The notes under the pieces: generated by a model | Database searches by the model: none | What the model saw: the letters and a program-made list of their open reading frames with translations, nothing else | What the model was told of the DNA's origin: nothing | Made by a program: the position numbers and the translations under genes | In this document: one piece after another, positions 7,203 through 59,017 of the stretch | Layout of the letters: each line of letters opens with the position of its first letter | Numbering within the stretch: the first letter of the stretch is position 1 | Origin: Thermodesulfobacteriota bacterium | GTDB taxonomy: Bacteria; Desulfobacterota; RBG-13-43-22 | Assembly (NCBI GenBank): GCA_049520575.1 | Contig: JBEKPQ010000015.1 | Location: 17,527-81,526 of the forward strand | Length of the DNA stretch: 64,000 bases | Reading direction: 5' to 3'

Positions 7203-7577
7203 ATGACCAAAGAAAAATTTCATCCGGAACATGCCTGGGTATCGGTAAACGGCCACCACGGGACCATCGGTATCTCGGACTATGCCCAACAGCAATTGGG
7301 AGAAATCATCTATGTGGACCTGCCGGAAATCAATACCGAAATCCTGGCGGGTGAACCCTTGTGTGCCTTGGAATCCAGCAAAGTGGCCAGCGATGTGATT
7401 GCCCCGGTCAGCGGGACGGTCATAGAAACCAACGGGTCTTTAGATGAAGAACCCCAACAGATCAATGCTTCTCCCTATGAAGCGGGCTGGCTGGTTAAGG
7501 TCATTTTAAAGAAACCTTCGGAATTGGACGAATTAATGGACAAGGCTGCTTATGAGGAGTATATTGCCTCCAAATAA
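7203..7577 (+). CDS. gcvH: glycine cleavage system H protein (lipoyl carrier)
   Basis: 124 aa with the lipoyl-lysine motif ALESSKVASDV. Confidence 0.9.
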   Translation: MTKEKFHPEHAWVSVNGHHGTIGISDYAQQQLGEIIYVDLPEINTEILAGEPLCALESSKVASDVIAPVSGTVIETNGSLDEEPQQINASPYEAGWLVKVILKKPSELDELMDKAAYEEYIASK

Positions 7578-7643
7578 GCACTATTTTTTTAAAACAAAAC
7601 CTTTTGCCTCTTTGGGGCGCCACGAAACATGAAAATAATTTTA

Positions 7644-7700
7644 GGATTCAAGGATTCAAGTGAAAAGCGTGGAAGTTAAAACCCTTGAATCCTTGAATCC
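7644..7700. repeat. GGATTCAAGGATTCAAGTGAAA element with a matching inverted arm (CTTGAATCCTTGAATCC), hairpin-forming
   Basis: 17-bp inverted repeats 7644-7660 and 7684-7700. Same family as 29550-29605 and the composite copies near trpD. Confidence 0.7.
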
Positions 7701-7722
7701 TATTTTAAGGAGAGGAGAGGGT

Positions 7723-8178
7723 ATGGCTCCACAAAAAAGAAAAGACAAGCCCCTGGTTCTGCTAAAAAGCCTTGTTCTGGTTATTACCTGTCTGTCTTTT
7801 TTGGGCATTCTCTCTTGTAATTGGGGTTCCGGTACGGGCAGTACCTCCAGCTCCGGAAGCGGCTCAGGGACGGGGACGGGATGGACGATTGATATCCAAG
7901 TGGGTACAAACCCCATTCAAGTTGGTGGAACAACAACCGTGATGGCGATTATCAAGGACGGTAAAGGAGCGCCCGCCCCTAAAGGGACTTATGTCCGTAT
8001 GACGTCAGTTCTAAATAGTTTTTTAACAACATCAACACCAGTCAGAAGCGTATTTGGACCCACCGACAACGACCTTGGACAATTTATCCTTACCTATTAT
8101 GCTCAAAACACAGGGGACGATACCGTGGAAGTTTCTTCCCAAGGTGTAATTCAGAGAAAAACTATTACTGTTTATTAA
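7723..8178 (+). CDS. small lipoprotein with Ig-like (Big-type) domain
   Basis: AAGGAGAGGAGAGG Shine-Dalgarno before ATG 7723. Signal peptide with an LSC lipobox, then a Gly/Ser/Thr linker and a beta-rich domain. Paralogous to 9941..10354. Confidence 0.55.
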   Translation: MAPQKRKDKPLVLLKSLVLVITCLSFLGILSCNWGSGTGSTSSSGSGSGTGTGWTIDIQVGTNPIQVGGTTTVMAIIKDGKGAPAPKGTYVRMTSVLNSFLTTSTPVRSVFGPTDNDLGQFILTYYAQNTGDDTVEVSSQGVIQRKTITVY

Positions 8179-8254
8179 AGTCAGGCATTCCCTTTTTTGA
8201 CGGGACTAAACTAAATCGATTAAAATCATCCTTTTTCAAAAGGCTACATATTGT

Positions 8255-9934
8255 TCAGTCTGGTACCGCTTTATTAATGATTATTAAGAATGGTTCTGCT
8301 TTTTTCACACCGATGACCCGGGTTCCGGGGATCTCTTGCCCCTTTTGATCAAAAAACAAAATCGCCGGAGGGCCGAAAAGTCCGAATCTTTTTAAAAAAG
8401 CATCCGTTTCCTCATTGGTCGAGGTCACATCTGCCTTCAGGAGCTTCACTCCTTTGAGTTTTTCTTTGACCCGGGAATCTCTAAAGGTCAAAACCTCCAT
8501 CTCTTTACAGGATACGCACCAATCGGCAGAAACATAAAGCATTACCGCTCGTTCTTGAGTCTCTTTTATCTGGGCCTCTAATTGATTGAGGCTGGTCAGG
8601 CGCTGAAAAGAAAGGGATGAGGTCAAGGGCGGAGAGATAACGGGATAAATGATCCAAAAGGCAACGGCCAACAGGAGTATTCCAAAAAAGACTTTGACCC
8701 ATTTCATCCAGGCCCCGGCCCTCGGCAACAAGGCCCCGGCCGAGGTCCCTATGATTAATAAGGGGACGCCCATGCCCAAGGACAGGGCAAATAAGGCCGA
8801 ACCACCCAGCCAGACGTCGTTTGTCCGGCTGATATAAAGTAAGGCCCCGGCTAGAGGAGCGGTGACACAGGGACTGATAATAATGGCCGAGAGCAACCCT
8901 ATGAAAAAGACCCCCACGAAGGTACCGGCCTTGAACCTGTTCCCGGCGGCGGTCAATTTATTCTGTATGAAAACAGGGAGCTGCAATTCATAAAGCCCGA
9001 ATATGGAAAGGGCCAGGGCCACAAAGATCAAGGCAAAGGCAATCAGCACCCAAATATTTTGCAGCGCATGGGAAATTAATCGGCCTGAGTATCCGGCCGC
9101 CACACCGGCTGCTGTATAGGTCAAGGCCATGCCCAGCACATAGGTCATAGAAAGGAGGAAGGCTCTTTTTTTTATCAGATCCTTCCCCTGGGCAATAATG
9201 ATACCGGAAATGATGGGGATCATGGGCAAAACACAGGGCGTAAAAGAAAGCAGCAGGCCAAATCCAAAGAAGCTTAAAATGATCCAGAAATAGTTATTGC
9301 TTTTCAAAAGCCCGAAGATCTCACCTCCACTCTCCCCTATCGAGGTGGAGGGAGATGCCTTGGAAAAAGCTCCAGGTTCTTCCATCCCTTGGAGGGAAGG
9401 GGTTGAAGGGAAGGGGAAGGGATTCAAATGAACTTTTTGGGTCTTGGGCGGATAACATAAGCCGGCATCGGAACAACCTTGATAAGTGATACTGAGGATT
9501 ATTTGTAAGGTTCTCGGAGACAGTGAGGTTATTGGTATTATAATAACCGCTTCCTTACGGAAGATTTCCGCTCGGCCGAAGTATTTATCTTCTTTAACCT
9601 GGCCGGGTGGAAATTGAGGAGAGCCAATTTTTGTCTGTCTAGTTTCAACAGCAAATTTGAATTTATCCCGATACAGGTAATATTCTTGGGCAATCTGGAA
9701 ACGGATTTCAATCTGGCCGGCCTTGAGCAGGCGGGCTTGAAAGGAAAAGGCTTGTTCGGGTCTTAAAGGCTGACAATATACGGCCTGACACAGAAAAAGG
9801 ATTATAAAGAAAGATAAAATGAAAAAATGCAGGGTAAGACAAAAAGAAAAGTTGCCTTGGGATGTTGAACCTTGAACTTTGAACCTTGAACCTTTTTTAG
9901 GCTTTGAGCCTTGAGCCTTACACCTTGAACTCAT
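8255..9934 (-). CDS. dsbD: thiol:disulfide interchange protein DsbD
   Basis: N-terminal DsbD-alpha (QGCSDAGLCYPP), central multi-pass membrane domain (CVLPMIP) and C-terminal thioredoxin domain (DWCVSCK). The 5' 90 nt overlap a TTCAAGG tandem array, so the start is uncertain. Confidence 0.8.
   Translation of the reverse strand: MSSRCKAQGSKPKKGSRFKVQGSTSQGNFSFCLTLHFFILSFFIILFLCQAVYCQPLRPEQAFSFQARLLKAGQIEIRFQIAQEYYLYRDKFKFAVETRQTKIGSPQFPPGQVKEDKYFGRAEIFRKEAVIIIPITSLSPRTLQIILSITYQGCSDAGLCYPPKTQKVHLNPFPFPSTPSLQGMEEPGAFSKASPSTSIGESGGEIFGLLKSNNYFWIILSFFGFGLLLSFTPCVLPMIPIISGIIIAQGKDLIKKRAFLLSMTYVLGMALTYTAAGVAAGYSGRLISHALQNIWVLIAFALIFVALALSIFGLYELQLPVFIQNKLTAAGNRFKAGTFVGVFFIGLLSAIIISPCVTAPLAGALLYISRTNDVWLGGSALFALSLGMGVPLLIIGTSAGALLPRAGAWMKWVKVFFGILLLAVAFWIIYPVISPPLTSSLSFQRLTSLNQLEAQIKETQERAVMLYVSADWCVSCKEMEVLTFRDSRVKEKLKGVKLLKADVTSTNEETDAFLKRFGLFGPPAILFFDQKGQEIPGTRVIGVKKAEPFLIIINKAVPD
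9850..9934. repeat. tandem octamer array (G[TC]TCAAGG-like units) of the GGATTCAAGG family
   Basis: Minus-strand reading: gttcaaggtgtaaggctcaaggctcaaagcc...ggttcaaggttcaaagttcaaggttcaac. Confidence 0.7.
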
Positions 9935-49476: not shown

Positions 49477-49510
49477 GGTTCATTAAATCCCTGGAATTCG
49501 TATTTTATGG
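49477..49510 (+). repeat. left direct repeat (CATTAAATCCCTGGAATTCGTATTTTATGGGG) bounding the pyrF/PRTase cassette
   Basis: 29 of 31 nt identical to 52567-52597 in the same orientation. Confidence 0.75.
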
Positions 49511-49913
49511 GGAGGGCCATCTATTTCCACAATAAATAAATGAAGTGAACAACATCCCCTTGAACAATGTTGCCGCTTAACAGCTTCTTTTTAAGGGGAA
49601 AAAGATCAGTTCAAGACCATTTTTATCCCCTACTTTTCATGAAATTTCCACATGAATTCAATATGTTGACCTGGAAAGGGCCCGGGATTATTAAGATCTT
49701 AAAACCTTTGGGTGTTCCTATCGGGTATAATCAAATCATGTGAAAAAAGCTTAGTAAGGGCATTGAGATGATTCTAAAAATTTGATTATTATATATTTTT
49801 TTTTCTTGACTTTATACAATATATAGTATTAGATTTCTTTATAGTATACATCATAAGGTACCTTTCAAGGGTAAGTATGATTTATGACTATAAATATTCT
49901 CATAAGATTATCT

Positions 49914-49956: not shown

Positions 49957-50688
49957 ATGAATAATAAAAATAAAATAAGAGAGAAAATCTGTATTGCCCT
50001 TGATGTAGATTCAGGTGCCGAAGCCTTGAGGTTATCAGGCATGTTAAAAAATTATTGTGGATTTTTTAAAATTGGGGTCCAGTTATTTTCTCAGGAAGGG
50101 CCCGATATAGTTAAAAAAGTTATCTCGCTAGGCCCAAAAGTTTTTTTGGACTTAAAATATCATGACATACCCAATACAATAAAAAACACAGTAAAAGTTA
50201 TTGTTGGCCTAGGGATTTCCGTCTTTAATGTCCATACAACAGGCGGGTATGAAATGATGTTGGAAACATCGAATGCTGTAAAAGAGGAATCAAAAAAGTT
50301 AGGTATTCCTAAACCCATGGCAATTGGTGTTACAGTACTTACAAGTATAAATTCAAAAATTCTATCCGAAGAATTAATGATTAAACAGGATTTGAGTGAA
50401 TATGTTGTACATTTATCAAAATTGGCTAAAAAGGCTGGCTTAGATGGGGTTGTCGCATCTCCGCATGAAATAAAAATAATTAGGAAATCCTGTGGACCTA
50501 ATTTCAAAATTATAACACCAGGGGTAAGACCTTCATGGTCCTTAGGAGTAGATGACCAAAAAAGGATAATGACTCCGAATGAAGCAATAAAAAATGGAGC
50601 AGATTTTATTGTTGTTGGACGTCCAATAATAAAGGCTAAGGATCCCGTTGAGGCTGCAAAAAAACTCCTTAACGAGATATTAAGTTAA
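49957..50688 (+). CDS. pyrF: orotidine-5'-phosphate decarboxylase (type 1, B. subtilis-like), AT-rich
   Basis: Full-length OMPdecase. Catalytic DLKYHDIP (DxKxxD), substrate-loop motifs and a C-terminal GRPI phosphate-binding motif. Confidence 0.9.
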   Translation: MNNKNKIREKICIALDVDSGAEALRLSGMLKNYCGFFKIGVQLFSQEGPDIVKKVISLGPKVFLDLKYHDIPNTIKNTVKVIVGLGISVFNVHTTGGYEMMLETSNAVKEESKKLGIPKPMAIGVTVLTSINSKILSEELMIKQDLSEYVVHLSKLAKKAGLDGVVASPHEIKIIRKSCGPNFKIITPGVRPSWSLGVDDQKRIMTPNEAIKNGADFIVVGRPIIKAKDPVEAAKKLLNEILS

Positions 50689-50689
50689 G

Positions 50690-51112
50690 ATGAAAGAACT
50701 CCCCGACTTATTAGTATTTACTGGCGAAGAGGTTATAAAATCTGAGGTTAATAATACATTAAATTTGGCCCCTTTTAAAAAGCTTAGATATAAGGGGCTC
50801 CCGAAGTATTTATCCGTTGAGTATCCAAAGGAAATAAGGTTTTTATCTTTCTTTCTAATAAATTTATTGGAAGATATATTTTATAATTTGATCGGGGACT
50901 TCCCATATGAAGATAGTTTTGGGGATCAAATTCATGCGGTTAGGAAAGATTTTTTTAAATTTATGAGCGAAAAGTTTATCGAGATTGGAAAAGCAATATT
51001 AATCAATGATTATTTAATAATACCTACTAGGTTTACAGAGTTGGTAGTAGACTATTTGACAGTAATAGAAAAGATAAACACTATTATTGACGAAGGACAT
51101 TTGAAGTGCTGA
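50690..51112 (+). CDS. hypothetical protein (140 aa, soluble, AT-rich)
   Basis: ATG lies 1 nt after the pyrF stop. No recognisable motif. Confidence 0.4.
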   Translation: MKELPDLLVFTGEEVIKSEVNNTLNLAPFKKLRYKGLPKYLSVEYPKEIRFLSFFLINLLEDIFYNLIGDFPYEDSFGDQIHAVRKDFFKFMSEKFIEIGKAILINDYLIIPTRFTELVVDYLTVIEKINTIIDEGHLKC

Positions 51113-51528
51113 GCATAAGCCTTTTTTTGACTACAAAAACATTGTGGGCTTTAATATGCTATGCTAGCCGAATTATCCTTGAGGGAATAATAGATGAATT
51201 CAGGTTAATAAAAAGATTGGGAGTGGATTTTTCATATATTTCACTTGTATTTATCGGCTTTAATTTGATTCAAAAAGAACCACGTCCTCGATTCTACTCC
51301 TTTGTTGATATGTTAACAAAACAATATCCGGATATAAATGAAAAATTTTCACCAATAATATTAGTAGTTTTTACTCTTCTTCTTTTAGGATTATCAATAT
51401 TCTGTCAAAAACATTTTAATAAAACAAGCAGTAATACTTTTAAAGGCCTGCTAATAAAAGGATTGGCAATTACAATCAGTTATGGTATAGGTGTTGCTTT
51501 ATTTTTATTGGCTGTAGTTATTCAGTAA
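51106..51528 (+). CDS. hypothetical small membrane protein (about 4 TM)
   Basis: Overlapping GTG start. Hydrophobic segments throughout. Confidence 0.4.
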   Translation: MLSISLFLTTKTLWALICYASRIILEGIIDEFRLIKRLGVDFSYISLVFIGFNLIQKEPRPRFYSFVDMLTKQYPDINEKFSPIILVVFTLLLLGLSIFCQKHFNKTSSNTFKGLLIKGLAITISYGIGVALFLLAVVIQ

Positions 51529-51551
51529 AATAAGTGGAAAAGGAGGGCGTA

Positions 51552-52208
51552 GAGATGGAAAATTTATACATTCTAAAAATTTTCCTTGAACCAACAATAA
51601 TATTGCCCACCATTTTAATGATGATAATCATCTTTTTTGTCATGGTAAGAATTATTAAAAAGGAAAGGACAGAATCTTTAGTATATCCAGGTATAAGTAA
51701 AAGTCATTGGTTTACGGTAGGGGGAACAGAAAGCAAATTCTATTATGATATTGATAAGGGCGCCTCTTCCCTGGAAGGAATTCAAAGAATTTCAAATTGG
51801 TATGTTGATAACATCAAAGAATTAAAGAAAAAGAAAAAAATTGATGGCTTAGCGTTTATTGAACGCGAAGATGGTCCAATTGGTGCTATAACAAAAAAAG
51901 ATCTTATTTCCTTTATGACAAATATTTCTTCTTTTGTTGTCCGGCCAAAGAGAAGAATTAAAGCTTCGGCTATCAAAGGGGCAGAAAATATTCAAGGCAA
52001 GGATATTGTTGTAATCAGTGATGTGGCGACTACGGGTTATTCTGTTGAAAAGGTAATAGATATTATTCAAACTTGTAACGCGCGAGTTGTTGCCGCAATA
52101 ACTATTCTTAACCGCGGCGGTTCAAAAACAGAGGACCTTTTTAAAGAAAAGAAAATCGATTTTATTTACGCCGCTGATAATGATGATATAAAAAATTATG
52201 TGTCTTAA
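51552..52208 (+). CDS. membrane-anchored type-I phosphoribosyltransferase, orotate-PRTase-like
   Basis: AAGGAGGG Shine-Dalgarno 7 nt before ATG 51552. N-terminal TM helix (LEPTIILPTILMMIIIFFVMV), then a PRTase fold with a PRPP-binding motif (DIVVISDVATTGYS) and OPRT-like SKFYYDID. Confidence 0.6.
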   Translation, partial: EMENLYILKIFLEPTIILPTILMMIIIFFVMVRIIKKERTESLVYPGISKSHWFTVGGTESKFYYDIDKGASSLEGIQRISNWYVDNIKELKKKKKIDGLAFIEREDGPIGAITKKDLISFMTNISSFVVRPKRRIKASAIKGAENIQGKDIVVISDVATTGYSVEKVIDIIQTCNARVVAAITILNRGGSKTEDLFKEKKIDFIYAADNDDIKNYVS

Positions 52209-52566
52209 AATTTTATTAAATGGCAATAAAATTTAAATTGAGAGGACATCACACTTATTTTTTTAAGTTAAAAATTAAATGAGTATGGTGTCCCCTGTTA
52301 TTGCAGTTCTTGTACTGACTTTTATTGATAAAAAATTGCTTTTTTTGAAGAGTATAAAATGAGAAAAAGGAACGGTCAAGGATAAAAACTGGGCGGAAGG
52401 GATAGGGGGCGTCTTCTGAAGAAAATGAGACTATGCAGGGTTGTGCCTTACAAATTGATTACCATTTGTAATATAGCATAAAGAGCCAAAATTTAAATTC
52501 ACGACTACAGGAAGAATGCACCATCAAACTTGATGATGCCTGTATAGTCAAATCCTGACTTTCACA

Positions 52567-52597
52567 CATTAAATCCCTGGAATTCACATTTTATGGG
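52567..52597 (+). repeat. right direct repeat (CATTAAATCCCTGGAATTCACATTTTATGGG) of the pyrF/PRTase cassette
   Basis: See 49477-49510. Confidence 0.75.
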
Positions 52598-52671: not shown

Positions 52672-54156
52672 CTATTGGGACTTAAAATGACTCTCTTGAA
52701 TAAGATTAGTTTCTTTAAAATTTAAATGGTTTTTTTCGGCTTCATATGCTTCCTCTCCATGTGTGAAGAAGTGTTTGTTTCTAATCTCATCTGTTATAGA
52801 GCCTGAAGTCCCAACAAGTTTTGTATCTATATACTTTTTATAAATAGAATTCACAATTGTTTTAAAAAACTCATCATAATTCTTTTCGTCGATAGTAAGA
52901 TTTATTTCATTGCCATCCTTTGAATATTTCAAAATCTTTCGTATTCTGAAAACTATGACAGGGAATATATGCTCGATGTTATAATTCGTCATCTTTTTTA
53001 TTGCTTTATCGCTCTCTTCTGTTAGTTCGTTATTATTAATTAATCGTATTTTGTCTCTTAGCGATGTTTCTCCTAGTTCTTCCAACAATGCCTTTTCTTT
53101 GATATCTCTGTAGATTATTTCTTTTTGAATCCTGAGGTATCGTAATACGTAGTTTTCCCGAATTTGATACAAAAAGGGAATCAATTTTGAAATGACCTGA
53201 ATAGTCTCCTGTGCTTTTTCTCTATTTTTTATTAATTTTATAAAAAGATTATAAATTGGTATTCTTTGATTTGCGTATTTATGAATGTCCTTTTCTTTGG
53301 TCAAAATACCAGTAGATACCACCGGCCTTAGTAAAGTAAGAATGTGTACTTTTGGCCCCTTTTCAACAATCTCCCCCAATCGATATTCTATCTTGAGAGA
53401 TTCTCCGTATTTATTTTCAAATTCTTTAAAAATATTATCCTTCAGCTCTCTTTTATATCTAGAGCCAAATATATCGTCGATAGCAACTTTTTGGGTTTCA
53501 TTATTTGCCCCGGCTATTAGAGTTCCAGCTGAATATTCATCTAACTCATCAACAGCATCGAGAATACGATCAATCACATTAATTTGTATCCTGATCTTGC
53601 TTGTTAAAAAATCCTCTAATTTTAGCTCATTAAAACATCTTTGGTATTTCCCTTCTCCCTTAATAAAGGATACAATTTCATTCACCCTCCCAAACTTTAC
53701 AAATTTAAGGAAGGATATGACTTTTTCGTCTCTGAGGTTTTCTTTTAGAAATTGATGAAAGGACTTGGCCGTGATATTCTCTAATAAATTTTCTGATGTA
53801 TAATATTTTAATAGGGCCAGTATTAGGATTATGAACCTAGTTTGATTTCCATTGGTCAAACAACAGCTTTTAAACTTTAGAGTATTTTCGCTGGAAAAGC
53901 TCAAACCAGTTAGAGAAACGATCATTCCTGAATGCAAAAATCGGAACATATTTTTTGGATCTTTTAGAAGGCTTTTTATGATTTCAATATTGGACTTTTT
54001 CAAACCATTATATTCCCGGGGATTGCTTCCAGCTTCACTATCTCTATAATCCAAAAATAGAATATCTTTAAATAAAGTTTCTCCTAAAATACTTTTTTTA
54101 TCTCCTGAGTACCAATATTTATCTGGAAAAGAGATAGTGTTTTCTTTTGAGAACAT
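52672..54156 (-). CDS. large hypothetical protein (494 aa), possible Abi/AIPR-like abortive-infection protein with a C-terminal HEPN-like Rx6H motif
   Basis: AT-rich, Lys/Glu-rich. C-terminal motif EIRNKHFFTHGEE. Translationally coupled to the upstream HEPN gene (14-nt gap). Confidence 0.45.
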   Translation of the reverse strand: MFSKENTISFPDKYWYSGDKKSILGETLFKDILFLDYRDSEAGSNPREYNGLKKSNIEIIKSLLKDPKNMFRFLHSGMIVSLTGLSFSSENTLKFKSCCLTNGNQTRFIILILALLKYYTSENLLENITAKSFHQFLKENLRDEKVISFLKFVKFGRVNEIVSFIKGEGKYQRCFNELKLEDFLTSKIRIQINVIDRILDAVDELDEYSAGTLIAGANNETQKVAIDDIFGSRYKRELKDNIFKEFENKYGESLKIEYRLGEIVEKGPKVHILTLLRPVVSTGILTKEKDIHKYANQRIPIYNLFIKLIKNREKAQETIQVISKLIPFLYQIRENYVLRYLRIQKEIIYRDIKEKALLEELGETSLRDKIRLINNNELTEESDKAIKKMTNYNIEHIFPVIVFRIRKILKYSKDGNEINLTIDEKNYDEFFKTIVNSIYKKYIDTKLVGTSGSITDEIRNKHFFTHGEEAYEAEKNHLNFKETNLIQESHFKSQ

Positions 54157-54170
54157 TTCACACCCCTATT

Positions 54171-54791
54171 TTATTTAATTAATTTTCTCATATTTATAGA
54201 GGCCATCTTAAAAGCAGACAGCAATTTCATAAAGCGATCCCCTTTTCCATGGTTTAAAAATAATCCAGGCTTTTGAAAGTTGTTTTGTTTATAGAGACCC
54301 ATATAACCTTCTATTAAAGTTTTTTTCGAAAATGTAGAATAATGTGAAAGGTAGTTTCTGATTTTATAAATAAAACTAATTTTGTTTATTTGGTCTTTGG
54401 AAACATTTAAAAGAAGATTATAGCGTTCACATAAAATTTTTTTATAGAACCCTTTTGTTCTTTCCAAGTCATGTAGGTCTCTATACCTATCTGAAAAAAT
54501 TATGGCTCTAACAAGTTCAGCAGTAAGTCGTGTATTAGGTGTTAAACCAAATTCTGCCTTTATATTTTTAGTATCAAGAAGGGTACAAAATATCACTTCT
54601 TTCTCAAGAAAAAGTTCCCAAAATGCGCATGCTCTTAAAACCAACGACTCTAATATTAGATATTTTTCCTCTTTTTTTATTTGACGTGAATAAGGAATTC
54701 CACAAATAATTTCGGAAGCATACTGCAATAGATTTTCTATTTCTTTCTCAAAAGTCTCGTGATTTTTTAAAATGGATTTTCTAATATCCAT
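54171..54791 (-). CDS. HEPN-superfamily protein (R-N-x-x-x-H motif)
   Basis: 206 aa, mostly alpha-helical, with the canonical Rx4-6H motif KIRNYLSHYS at residues 136-145. AT-rich. Confidence 0.5.
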   Translation of the reverse strand: MDIRKSILKNHETFEKEIENLLQYASEIICGIPYSRQIKKEEKYLILESLVLRACAFWELFLEKEVIFCTLLDTKNIKAEFGLTPNTRLTAELVRAIIFSDRYRDLHDLERTKGFYKKILCERYNLLLNVSKDQINKISFIYKIRNYLSHYSTFSKKTLIEGYMGLYKQNNFQKPGLFLNHGKGDRFMKLLSAFKMASINMRKLIK

Positions 54792-54820
54792 AACATCTAT
54801 ACCTTTAAGAGGGAACTTTA

Positions 54821-54929
54821 GTTCTAAAACAACTTATTTCTCCTCAATTGTCCGATTGTCAAGTTGATTTTAATTTTACCTTATTATACCCTCTTTTTTC
54901 ACCCAACCCAAACTGAAAAATCCCTTTGG
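54821..54929. repeat. copy 1 of a 110-bp direct repeat (GTTCTAAAACAAC/GTTATTTCTCC...CTGAAAAATCCCTT) at the island boundary
   Basis: Aligns with 56604-56732 at about 85% identity, apart from a 40-nt insertion in copy 2. Confidence 0.7.
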
Positions 54930-54939
54930 AAATTTTCGG

Positions 54940-58160: not shown

Positions 58161-58541
58161 TTAACCGGTCAGTTGAAGCCCAAGTATGTCCTTCAGGCGT
58201 CTAAAATGGTTATCCAGTGAATAAATTTCGCAACGATTTTGTATTGCGTTTTGGGCAACAATAAGATCTGGGATACCGATTCCATTTATTCCATTCTTTA
58301 AGCATTTGAATTGGAACTCAACAATTTGATTCCAGTCAATGGCTAATTTCAACTTTTTAATACTGTATAATAAAGTTACAATCTTTGATTGATGGTGGAC
58401 TTTTAAAGAAGGGACCAATTCTGCCAGGATCAGGTCATTAATAACCATAAGGTTTTCATCGATTAAGAAGTCAAGTTTTTCAGAATTATTCCCGCTCCTG
58501 AAATACTCTATCCATAAGGAAGTATCGACTAATACCGACAT
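58161..58541 (-). CDS. vapC: PIN-domain toxin VapC
   Basis: PIN acidic residues (VLVDTSLWIEY...DLILAE...D). AT-rich. Confidence 0.85.
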   Translation of the reverse strand: MSVLVDTSLWIEYFRSGNNSEKLDFLIDENLMVINDLILAELVPSLKVHHQSKIVTLLYSIKKLKLAIDWNQIVEFQFKCLKNGINGIGIPDLIVAQNAIQNRCEIYSLDNHFRRLKDILGLQLTG

Positions 58542-58732
58542 TGACGCCCTCTGATGGCGTTCAAATCAATGTCCAAATTAACCTTGCCCTTGAATTTTTT
58601 CAACCCGGATATCTTTGATTTTATGATTAAATCTTCTAAAGCGGTGATAATGACTTTGGTTTTTGTATTAATGTGAGCCACCTTCATGGCCTCATCAATT
58701 AAATTTTCAGGTAAATCAAGTGTTGTTCTCAT
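58529..58732 (-). CDS. vapB: VapB-type antitoxin
   Basis: AAGGAGG Shine-Dalgarno 6 nt before ATG 58732 (MRTTLDLPENLIDEA, RHH/Arc-like). Its stop overlaps the vapC start. Confidence 0.7.
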   Translation of the reverse strand: MRTTLDLPENLIDEAMKVAHINTKTKVIITALEDLIIKSKISGLKKFKGKVNLDIDLNAIRGRQCRY

Positions 58733-59017
58733 GATCGTCCTCCTTAACCATCTGCATAATAATAACATTATATGCATATGATGTCAAGGTTTTCGAAGAG
58801 GATGAGCAGTACATTAACCTATTATCCTCGGCCTTCCCAGCCTTCTAAACAAAATTACTCCAATCGTTCAAAATCATGACTATTGCTTTTTAATCCTCCT
58901 CATGTTATTTTTCTGATAGAAATCAATCTTCATTCCTGCTTTAGCAGGAGGGTAGCGGTCTTATCCGAAATTTCACCCTTTGGAGCAAGCTTCAAGGAGC
59001 CTTAAACCAATGGAGGT

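Follow-up and report, generated by a model that had tools for sequence, protein, structure and literature searches.

The two adjoining genes described here, S and L, most likely form a self-contained mobile conflict module. The explanation that we hold to be on balance probable is an abortive-infection-type defence system in which S is a HEPN endoribonuclease and L is its partner from the AIPR/AbiU1 lineage. The pair lies in a stretch of 64,000 nucleotides, here called the window, and it is a variant of the 'HEPN plus ParB-like/AIPR' theme that is already known from computational description. What we infer for it, beyond the identity of the two proteins, is complex formation, RNase activity, a sensor or regulator role for L and a defence phenotype.

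The pair and its immediate surroundings comprise the following features.

54171..54791, minus strand: gene S, a 206-aa HEPN protein of a RiboL-PSP-related clade, predicted to be the RNase effector.
52672..54156, minus strand: gene L, a 494-aa AIPR-core protein, predicted to serve the nuclease as its partner, sensor or regulator.
54157..54170, minus strand: the S-L spacer AATAGGGGTGTGAA, 14 nt long, which carries the ribosome-binding site of L.
54792..54939, minus strand: AT-rich region 5' of S, 148 nt, with promoter-like hexamers.
52518..52539, minus strand: terminator-like hairpin about 130 nt past the L stop, a single site at chance level.
49481-49511: left copy of a 31-nt direct repeat.
52567..52597, plus strand: right copy of the 31-nt direct repeat, at the boundary between a pyrF/PRTase cassette and S-L.

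The sequence-only reading of this DNA had described two open reading frames of 206 and 494 aa with a 14-nt gap, lying in an AT-rich context and convergent with the pyrF/PRTase cassette. The frames, their spacing and their orientation are those of the ORF map. Between about 49.5 and 54.9 kb the GC content of the insert is 0.25-0.40, compared with about 0.5 on either side. The TAA stop of S is followed by AATAGGGGTGTGAA, in which a GGGG(T)G ribosome-binding site precedes the ATG start of L, an arrangement consistent with translational coupling of the two genes. The 148-nt region upstream of S is possibly the unit's own promoter, with a promoter-like GTGAAA-18-TAAAAT at 54902..54873, but this is weak evidence because the count of such sites is not above chance. 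The functional link to the pyrF/PRTase cassette that had been suggested is not supported. The two repeat copies are identical at 29 of 31 bases, a match seen in none of 100 shuffles, and no homologue of the cassette was found in 25 other S-L loci. Judged by its own direct repeats, the cassette is a separate insert, and it was rejected as a partner of S-L on the repeats and on its absence elsewhere. The idea that the 460 nt between L and the PRTase gene contain an RNA antitoxin or a repeat array was also rejected, as both Rfam and TRF were empty there.

Judged from synteny and divergence, S and L are an obligate pair. All 67 close-family loci with enough upstream DNA, 20 of them genome-derived and 47 from metagenomes, have an S-family reading frame immediately upstream of L in the same orientation; they come from several bacterial phyla and from archaea. 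Where both genes are intact, the stop of S and the start of L either overlap, by as much as about 40 nt, or have a gap of 14 nt or less between them. The pairwise identities of the two proteins are strongly correlated (Mantel r = 0.94, reached by 0 of 5000 permutations), with means of 51% for L and 46% for S, and the genes decay together in L022 and L083.

The pair is also mobile. At 44-56% identity, its hosts include Desulfobacterota, Brocadiia and other Planctomycetota, Ignavibacteriota, Dadabacteria, Asgard archaea and Woesearchaeota, and in each of 20 loci S-L has a higher AT content than its flanks. An integrase adjoins the pair in L015 and RhuM in L020, and in L003 and L004 the pair has N6_N4_Mtase, an ABC-3C system and PemK among its neighbours. 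Many loci stand among housekeeping genes and not in defence islands. The proposal of a coupled, horizontally mobile two-gene unit of the abortive-infection or toxin type is borne out by the synteny, the AT-richness and the patchy distribution. Searches for the pair in collections of mobile elements returned nothing, whether L was compared by tblastn with plasmid and phage records, IMG/VR was scanned for L and S, or PHROGs was used. The evidence for a role in anti-phage defence is contextual and consists of the mobility of the pair, its R-M, toxin-antitoxin and integrase neighbours and this absence from phage collections.

HEPN proteins are marked by a conserved Rx4-6H motif, typically R-[NHQD]-x-x-x-H, an all-alpha four-helix up-down bundle and metal-independent endoribonuclease activity. 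The motif of S lies as follows.

54342..54359, minus strand: codons of R145-N-Y-L-S-H150, an Rx4H motif of the HEPN catalytic type.

The string KIRNYLSHYS, from which the 206-aa protein had been called HEPN, is present, and its Arg and His are invariant across homologues. RNYLSH occurs without variation in 19 close S homologues. Among 56 members of the superfamily, which reach down to 17% identity, invariance is limited to R145 and H150, with N146 conserved in over 90%. An R.{4,6}H string as such is unremarkable, since it arises in 50% of S shuffles; the motif is considered real because it is invariant across homologues, not because the string is present. S itself remains below every Pfam HEPN threshold, its match to HEPN_Apea reaching 15.7 bits (E 0.02; threshold 24.4), and the PADLOC model Cas13-ApeA also scores S below threshold (E 0.004). 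The Pfam family HEPN_RiboL-PSP is matched by 15 of the 56 relatives, and two of these, P0166 (33.4 bits) and P0213 (29.8 bits), exceed its gathering threshold of 28.4. Because these two pass the threshold and also match the S profile (E 5.5e-27 and E 8e-18, respectively), S belongs transitively to a curated HEPN family. Its AF2 model is all-alpha, with a pLDDT of 92. From its motif and its profile relationships, S is judged to be a genuine HEPN-superfamily protein. None of its relatives gave an AbiU2-type Pfam match. Distant S-like HEPN proteins were also seen, on contigs too short for informative gene context.

L belongs to a family of about 142 clusters of ~500-aa proteins, drawn from 5.8 billion proteins, and is rich in Lys (11.3%) and Glu (9.5%), as had been remarked from its translation. 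Two regions of it are invariant.

53833..54033, minus strand: AIPR-type N-terminal core, L residues 42-108, with invariant AGSNPRE, LHSG and CLTNGNQT.
53464..53514, minus strand: second invariant motif A-x-ANN-x-TQ-x-V-x-x-DD-I-F-G, L residues 215-231.

The core motifs are still invariant when Bacillota variants of 28-29% identity are included in the alignment, and N218, N219, T221, V224, D228 and F230 of the second motif are invariant across all variants. Pfam AIPR (PF10592) matches residues 44-107 of the L in the window at 19.5-22 bits (E 8e-4), which is below the gathering threshold of 25 bits. In the L family, 16 of 37 members have the same match at a significant level (best E 3.6e-8), as do 10 of 15 N-terminal halves of L members (best E 1.5e-9), and the L025 variant exceeds the threshold with 31.2 bits. 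The AIPR matches with residue ranges shown cover only positions ~3-72 of the 308 in the profile. The remaining ~380 residues of L match nothing. The statement that L contains no other recognisable domain is not quite right, given the weak AIPR match of its N-terminus. Overall, the profile matches and invariant motifs identify L as an AIPR-core protein that is not detectably HEPN.

AbiU1, AIPR and COG1479 are described as encompassing a ParB-superfamily domain (PMC3632139), and on that description, and on the resemblance of its motifs and secondary structure, the N-terminal core of L may be called ParB-like. In the AF2 model of L (pLDDT 86), the core runs from NPRE through a helix and strands to NGNQT, which stands at the N-terminus of a helix. 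R107 was considered as the arginine of the ParB 'GxxR' motif and rejected, as this residue is Leu in variants. A third homologue search with the L profile returned nothing beyond the same ~142 clusters, and so no bridge from L to canonical AIPR, DndB or DUF262 was found. HMM searches of the PDB with the S, L and L N-terminal profiles returned only noise.

In distant relatives of L the upstream nuclease is of another type. In L023-L025 and L083, an L-like protein of 26-32% identity is preceded not by HEPN but by a 164-172 aa nuclease of the Mrr_cat-type PD-(D/E)xK class. Such an Mrr-like restriction nuclease lies upstream of distant L-like proteins in Bacillota, with L024 coming from Bacillus proteolyticus. 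Those of L075 and L080, which are also distant, have no upstream nuclease. The swap of nuclease type upstream of L-like proteins suggests that L is a conserved partner or sensor and that the nuclease effectors are exchangeable. A broader reading, which we offer as tentative, is that S-L and its relatives make up an unrecognised family of modular defence systems, each built of a conserved ~500-aa sensor and an interchangeable, separately encoded upstream nuclease. The sensor would consist of an AIPR-type core and a fold without a PDB match. Sediment and anaerobe bacteria, and archaea of the Asgard and DPANN groups, would use a HEPN RNase as the nuclease, and Bacillota an Mrr-like DNase. If this is true, both the trigger and the mechanism of activation would be new.

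A defence module of the favoured kind might work in the following way. A single transcript would yield both S and L through coupled translation, and the two would probably form a complex. S would be the effector, a HEPN-superfamily endoribonuclease of the RiboL-PSP-related clade, while the part of L beyond its core would be a family-specific, mostly helical region. L would hold the nuclease inactive until it senses a cue associated with an invader, which might be DNA or a nucleotide that its ParB-like core binds. It would then license S, so that RNA is cleaved and the infected cell stops growing. The architecture of the pair is what suggests these roles, sensor for L and effector for S.

The rival that survives best, although we consider it unlikely, is a plain toxin-antitoxin addiction module. 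S would be the toxin and L a proteinaceous antitoxin, and the pair would serve the selfish maintenance of mobile DNA, with no dedicated anti-phage sensing. A compact and translationally coupled two-gene unit, often inserted among housekeeping genes and with pseudogenised copies, speaks for this explanation. Other toxin-antitoxin pairs are also near, namely a VapBC pair within the window, PemK in L004 and an MNT-type gene that adjoins the pair in L001 only and is not conserved elsewhere. The properties of L do not fit as well. It is 2.4 times the size of S and the more conserved of the two, the order of the genes would place the toxin first and the antitoxin second, and Pfam detects neither NTP_transf_2, MNT nor any other known antitoxin domain in it. 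Moreover, the ~35 residues of L that are invariant across variants suggest an enzymatic or binding function and not a simple neutraliser, and the L-like protein is kept while the nuclease is swapped.

Somewhat less likely again is an accessory of a restriction-like, two-nuclease or modification-sensing kind, in which L would be an active DNA-targeting ParB-like nuclease or NTPase (cf. the DUF262 halves of GmrSD, BrxU and SspE, or DndB). S would add a second nuclease or act as a regulator, and the pair would work with adjoining restriction-modification (R-M) systems. In L009, L011 and L021 the pair does have Eco57I/MmeI-like R-M genes immediately upstream, and L003 has a methyltransferase nearby, but most S-L loci have no R-M neighbour. 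The literature ties AIPR to R-M operons and calls its core a ParB-superfamily nuclease (PMC2292703, PMC3506569, PMC3632139), and the upstream partner in the variants is a nuclease of the DNase type, Mrr_cat. However, the Pfam families DUF262, ParBc, DndB and DUF1524 do not match L even at E<=10, and neither HMM searches of the PDB nor Foldseek with the L model produced a significant match, including to BrxU, SspE and ParB. The string 'NIEHIFP' (L residues 393-399) was tried as a DUF1524-like His-Me finger and rejected, as H396 is lost in the Bacillota variants and 'EHIxP' (residues 395-399) is not conserved.

The sequence-only reading had regarded both proteins as HEPN, on the basis of a second motif-like string at the C-terminus of L.

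52759..52782, minus strand: RNKHFFTH, L residues 459-466, an Rx6H-like string that is not a conserved HEPN motif.

In the corresponding explanation, which we consider very improbable, L would carry a divergent C-terminal HEPN domain that forms a composite RNase site with S. The string EIRNKHFFTHGEE is indeed present (R459 codon at 52780-52782, minus strand), R459 is invariant in this C-terminal helical region among 36 L homologues, and some AIPR and DndB proteins bear HEPN domains (PMC3506569, PMC3632139). Its His residues are not conserved, however, the family consensus being VRSxDFYExG; no His is conserved 4-6 residues past R459 or R333; and at least one R.{4,6}H string occurs in 73% of composition-preserving L shuffles, so that its occurrence is at the level of chance. 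When seven segments of L were compared with the S-family alignments by hhalign, the probability was 2.1% or less, the best local match being a weak one between L 322-355 (YQIRENY) and the motif region of S. None of 37 L members has a HEPN Pfam match. A hidden HEPN domain in the L C-terminus was rejected on these hhalign values of about 2% or less. The claim of paired HEPN proteins had been tied to conservation of the Arg and His among homologues, and it falls because the His residues of L are not conserved and because no profile-profile resemblance to the HEPN family was seen.

A housekeeping, non-conflict RNA-processing pair that happens to be AT-rich is scarcely credible. Some loci do lie between same-strand metabolic genes (e.g., aconitase-[S-L]-PrpD in L017), but the pair occurs patchily, at about 50% identity, in unrelated phyla and in both prokaryotic domains, exceeds its flanks in AT content in all 20 loci, has varying genomic neighbours, exists in pseudogenised copies and is represented by so few clusters.

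If the favoured explanation, a mobile defence module of S and L, is confirmed, it would be a compact two-gene addition to the catalogue of HEPN-based defence and toxin systems, absent from PADLOC v2, NCBIfam and PHROGs and found in lineages that are hard to study, such as anammox bacteria, Desulfobacterota, Ignavibacteriota, Asgard archaea and Woesearchaeota. To our knowledge, AIPR/ParB-like proteins have long been listed as components of abortive-infection systems, and we know of no mechanism for them. The main value of the pair lies in the natural exchange of effector, from HEPN to an Mrr-like nuclease, upstream of a conserved partner, which would offer a clean handle on how AIPR/ParB-like proteins control nucleases. 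The general picture is unchanged, as HEPN proteins with ParB-like partners in conflict systems were predicted in 2013.

Neither protein could be assigned to a named Abi family, as had been anticipated. None of the named Abi families or PADLOC models was matched above threshold, the sub-threshold PADLOC matches being PtuB/HNH for L and Cas13-ApeA for S, and NCBIfam gave no match for either. The suggestion of an undescribed variant is right in that no named family fits. It is only partly true because the pairing of HEPN with a ParB-like protein had already been noted computationally, with RiboL-PSP-HEPN listed as 'in operon with ParB' (PMC3710099, Table 1). Like S-L, that pairing consists of an active-type HEPN protein, related to AbiD/F, beside a ParB-superfamily protein. 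It occupies one table line, which gives neither a mechanism nor a test nor a definition of the family, and its ParB partner may be of the L family. S-L differs from it in that S is below the Pfam HEPN thresholds and L matches AIPR over ~70 residues only and has ~380 unique residues. The literature on AIPR, RiboL-PSP and HEPN with ParB-like proteins contains no experimental work on the S-L pair.

The ParB-superfamily core of AbiU1, AIPR and COG1479 is often fused to HNH, PD-(D/E)xK or HEPN nucleases and is linked to R-M (PMC3632139). The COG1479/DUF262 proteins (GmrSD, BrxU and SspE; DndB with HEPN) resemble S-L in combining such a core with a nuclease (PMC3632139). In S-L and its variants, in contrast, the nuclease, of the HEPN or the Mrr-like PD-(D/E)xK type, is encoded separately upstream and is not fused. 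Furthermore, L has 'NGxQT' where these proteins have 'DGQ(H/Q)R', without conservation of the Arg. The HEPN-MNT toxin-antitoxin systems of types II and VII likewise combine, in a compact two-gene operon, a small HEPN RNase and a partner that controls it; unlike that partner, L is not a minimal nucleotidyltransferase, has 494 aa and is encoded downstream. To ApeA and the Apea-like HEPN proteins, which are stand-alone defence proteins, S is weakly similar around the motif, below threshold, but it is much shorter than ApeA-type proteins and has an obligate partner gene.

The closest experimentally tested system is lactococcal AbiU; we know of no other system combining the AIPR and HEPN lineages that has been studied by experiment. 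AbiU1 is the prototype of the AIPR family, and AbiU2 represents a HEPN family (PMC3506569, PMC3632139, PMC3710099). Like S-L, AbiU is a two-gene unit, an abortive-infection system, composed of one protein of each kind. The two differ in the clade of the HEPN protein, which is AbiU2 in one and RiboL-PSP-like in the other, and in that L shares only the N-terminal AIPR core.

The two genes of the pair lie on the reverse strand, with S upstream of L.

54171..54791 (-): gene S, ORF of 206 aa
52672..54156 (-): gene L, ORF of 494 aa

Between the stop codon of S (TAA) and the start codon of L (ATG) lies AATAGGGGTGTGAA, with a purine-rich ribosome-binding site. Both genes fall within a segment from about 49.5 to 54.9 kb whose GC content is 0.25-0.40, compared with about 0.5 on either side. 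The sequence-only reading had reported these two ORFs, an AT-rich setting and a peptide string from each protein. The coordinates agree exactly, both strings were found in the sequences, and the composition bears out the setting. However, 73% of composition-preserving shuffles of L and 50% of those of S contain at least one R.{4,6}H string by chance, so the string alone is uninformative and conservation alone therefore decides whether either protein is HEPN.

For S, the proposal of a HEPN protein is upheld. The segment R145-N-Y-L-S-H150 is invariant in 19 close homologues (36-61% identity). When 1.84 billion representative proteins were searched exhaustively with a profile, 233 relatives were recovered. 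Fifty-six of them, with identity down to 17%, were aligned; R145 and H150 are the sole invariant columns, and N146 is conserved at >90%. The matches of S itself to Pfam HEPN_Apea (E 0.02) and PADLOC Cas13-ApeA (E 0.004) are sub-threshold. Because 15 of the 56 relatives match Pfam HEPN_RiboL-PSP, two of them (P0166 and P0213) above the gathering score, S belongs to the RiboL-PSP-related HEPN clade, of which it is a divergent representative. Anantharaman et al. 2013 (PMC3710099, Table 1) list this clade as active, with a distant relationship to AbiD/F and an occurrence 'in operon with ParB'. The AF2 model of S is wholly helical (pLDDT 92); since Foldseek gave no significant match to it in PDB or BFVD, the HEPN fold is assigned from sequence only.

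The only consistent database signal of L is Pfam AIPR (PF10592), an abortive-infection family. It is matched by 16 of 37 full-length family members (best E 3.6e-8) and 10 of 15 N-terminal halves (best E 1.5e-9). A distant L variant (locus L025; such handles denote other loci with S-L relatives) scores above threshold at 31.2 bits, and the L of the window scores below it at 19.5-22 bits. Wherever a range was reported, the match spans only profile positions ~3-72 of 308. It corresponds to L residues 44-108, with the invariant motifs AGSNPRE, LHSG and CLTNGNQT. AbiU1, AIPR and COG1479 have been placed in the ParB superfamily, and their core is described as often fused to HNH, PD-(D/E)xK or HEPN nucleases and linked to restriction-modification (R-M) (PMC3632139, PMC3506569, PMC2292703). 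Along L, the motifs and predicted secondary structure run as NPRE loop, helix, strands and NGNQT at a helix N-terminus, an arrangement that fits a ParB-type N-domain. No Pfam match to ParBc, DUF262 or DndB was found in L even at E<=10, and no PDB match by HMM or Foldseek. The remaining ~380 residues match nothing known; their invariant positions are ANNxTQxV..DDIFG at 215-231, H271, R277, N296 and R459.

S and L behave as one unit, as had been proposed from their spacing. The L family is tight, with about 142 clusters of ~500 aa. Loci were drawn from exact-protein look-ups, species-representative genomes and JGI metagenomes. In all close-family loci with sufficient upstream DNA, 20/20 and 47/47, the gene directly before L on the same strand is an S-family ORF, and where neither gene is broken, the two overlap or have at most 14 nt between them. 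In a comparison of 16 loci, S and L diverge in step, with strongly correlated pairwise identities (Mantel r 0.94, equalled by 0/5000 permutations; 0.86 without near-identical pairs), L being somewhat more conserved (mean identity 51% vs 46%). No S-L fusions were found in either family (L lengths 361-526 aa; the best 150 of 233 S relatives <=290 aa). Decay affects both genes together in L022 and L083. In L006:237-565 S is fragmented, in L022:5348-7487 S is truncated and L broken into three ORFs, and in L083:1-2507 both an Mrr-like and an L-like gene contain stops. These pseudogenised copies indicate gene turnover of the kind that conflict genes typically show.

The invariant motifs of L are retained in more distant L-like proteins (26-32% identity, 506-539 aa). 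In four cases (Clostridium sp., Bacillus proteolyticus TD42, a Bacillota MAG and one metagenome contig) the gene upstream encodes, instead of HEPN, a 164-172 aa protein; it carries a DDG[IV]DF...QLKYW signature and matches Pfam Mrr_cat, the L024 copy above threshold.

L023:5465-7485: Mrr_cat-like PD-(D/E)xK nuclease gene and L-like gene, Bacillota
L024:5492-7608: the same arrangement, Bacillota
L025:5466-7494: the same arrangement, Bacillota

These three variants have no PADLOC matches, and integrase, HNH/zinc-ribbon and replication-like genes surround them. This architecture of one conserved large protein and interchangeable small upstream nucleases would be expected if L were a common sensor or regulator and the small protein the effector. 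No upstream partner of the L-like protein was found in L075 and L080. Distant nuclease-less L-like genes are flanked by a small, divergently oriented gene of 89-119 aa (L075:56-415(-), L084:2178-2459(-), L085:134-403(-)) with the motif VNKQPR..P.EGITH.GG..WRW.RQ.VIDSI. Its products, which look DUF3892-like, may be a third partner type. In L032:458-1967, a distant S-like RiboL-PSP HEPN gene is directly followed by a paralogous HEPN gene (LLRNYIVHKS), a true tandem-HEPN pair unlike the S-L module of the window.

At 44-56% identity, S-L occurs in the bacterial groups Thermodesulfobacteriota (the MAG population of the window itself), Desulfobacteraceae, Syntrophales, Brocadiia/Scalindua, other Planctomycetota, Ignavibacteriota and Dadabacteria, and in the archaeal groups Promethearchaeota/Lokiarchaeota and Woesearchaeota. 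The pair is AT-richer than its own flanks in 20/20 loci. Searches of phage genomes, plasmids, IMG/VR and PHROGs found no relatives. The genes beside the pair differ between loci. Eco57I/MmeI-like R-M enzymes lie directly upstream of S-L in three loci; another has an N6_N4 methyltransferase, PemK, AAA_13 and an ABC-3C system nearby; elsewhere an integrase, RhuM, a Macro-domain protein and a DUF4143 ATPase occur. In an Ignavibacteriota genome (L003:2424-7506 and L004:2421-7506), S shares 4 nt with the end of a DUF2326 ABC ATPase gene, part of an ABC-3C-type system with a 312-aa gene and an MC6 middle component, with which S-L may be co-transcribed. The pair in L015 has a phage-type integrase upstream and, immediately downstream (7571-8257), another small protein with a weak HEPN_RiboL-PSP match (E 7e-4). 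Two Ignavibacteriaceae genomes (L017:2488-8132 and L020:3276-8598) have the same aconitase gene directly upstream, with PrpD and RhuM downstream, respectively, a pattern that points to repeated insertion at one site of a methylcitrate-type gene cluster.

Based on this evidence, we cautiously favor an abortive-infection-type two-gene module. S would be the HEPN RNase, restrained by L through its AIPR/ParB-like core and unique C-terminal region, and an invader cue would lead L to activate S. The data show the domain identities, the coupling and co-divergence of the two genes, the effector exchange and the mobility; complex formation, the RNase activity of S, a role of L as sensor and the phenotype of the pair are what we infer. 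A plain toxin-antitoxin addiction module, which would likewise be a coupled pair, is unlikely. Somewhat less likely still is an R-M-associated module in which L itself is a DNA-directed enzyme. The paired-HEPN model of the sequence-only reading, with a degenerate HEPN domain in L, is improbable. Its L motif contains an invariant R459 (within 'VRSxDFYExG') and no conserved His in 36 homologues, seven L segments gave hhalign probabilities <=2% against S-family alignments, and HEPN Pfam models matched 0/37 family members; L is not detectably HEPN. A housekeeping function is very improbable, plain metabolic genes on both sides of S-L in several loci notwithstanding.

The convergent pyrF/PRTase cassette had also been linked to the pair, a connection that is not supported.

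49481-49511 and 52567-52597: 31-nt direct repeat
49957-52208 (+): cassette of four tightly packed genes

The repeat, CATTAAATCCCTGGAATTC[GT/AC]ATTTTATGGG, is identical at 29/31 bases, and 0/100 shuffles gave a match. Because its copies bracket exactly the 3.06-kb pyrF-x-x-PRTase cassette and nothing else, S-L lying outside the right-hand copy, and because no homologues of the four cassette proteins were found in 25 other S-L loci, the cassette is an independent neighbour and not a partner. The AT-rich 'island' is composite. The repeats suggest that the cassette arrived as a separate unit by way of target- or att-site duplication, in which case the island would represent two adjacent acquisitions. 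The cassette encodes what looks like a genuine OMP decarboxylase (NCBIfam PRK00230, 261 bits), an unmatched 140-aa protein, a second 140-aa protein of hydrophobic, membrane-like appearance, and a 224-aa phosphoribosyltransferase with a hydrophobic N-terminus, a sub-threshold pyrE-like match and a weak match to PADLOC ShosT (E 5.7e-5). Horizontal acquisition of a pyrimidine pair is one possible reading of the cassette, a nucleotide-targeting conflict system another. A VapB/PIN (VapBC) toxin-antitoxin pair at 58161-58777 (-), ~3.4 kb from S-L, occupies a second small AT-rich patch (GC 0.38), with carboxyltransferase and hotdog-fold genes in between.

Neither S nor L is recognised by PADLOC v2, NCBIfam or PHROGs. 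By membership tests, S-L falls outside AbiU, the DUF262/DUF1524 enzymes and HEPN-MNT, and L falls outside full-length AIPR. S-L comes closest to two earlier descriptions, the 2013 neighbourhood class 'RiboL-PSP-HEPN in operon with ParB' and the lactococcal AbiU pair of AIPR-type AbiU1 and HEPN-type AbiU2, both of which share the lineage combination and logic of S-L. S-L differs from these in its split architecture, in a partner with just ~70 residues in common with AIPR, and in its natural HEPN/REase exchange. Overall, S-L was conceptually anticipated by these earlier descriptions; found in understudied lineages, it makes a solid candidate system and a useful natural experiment.
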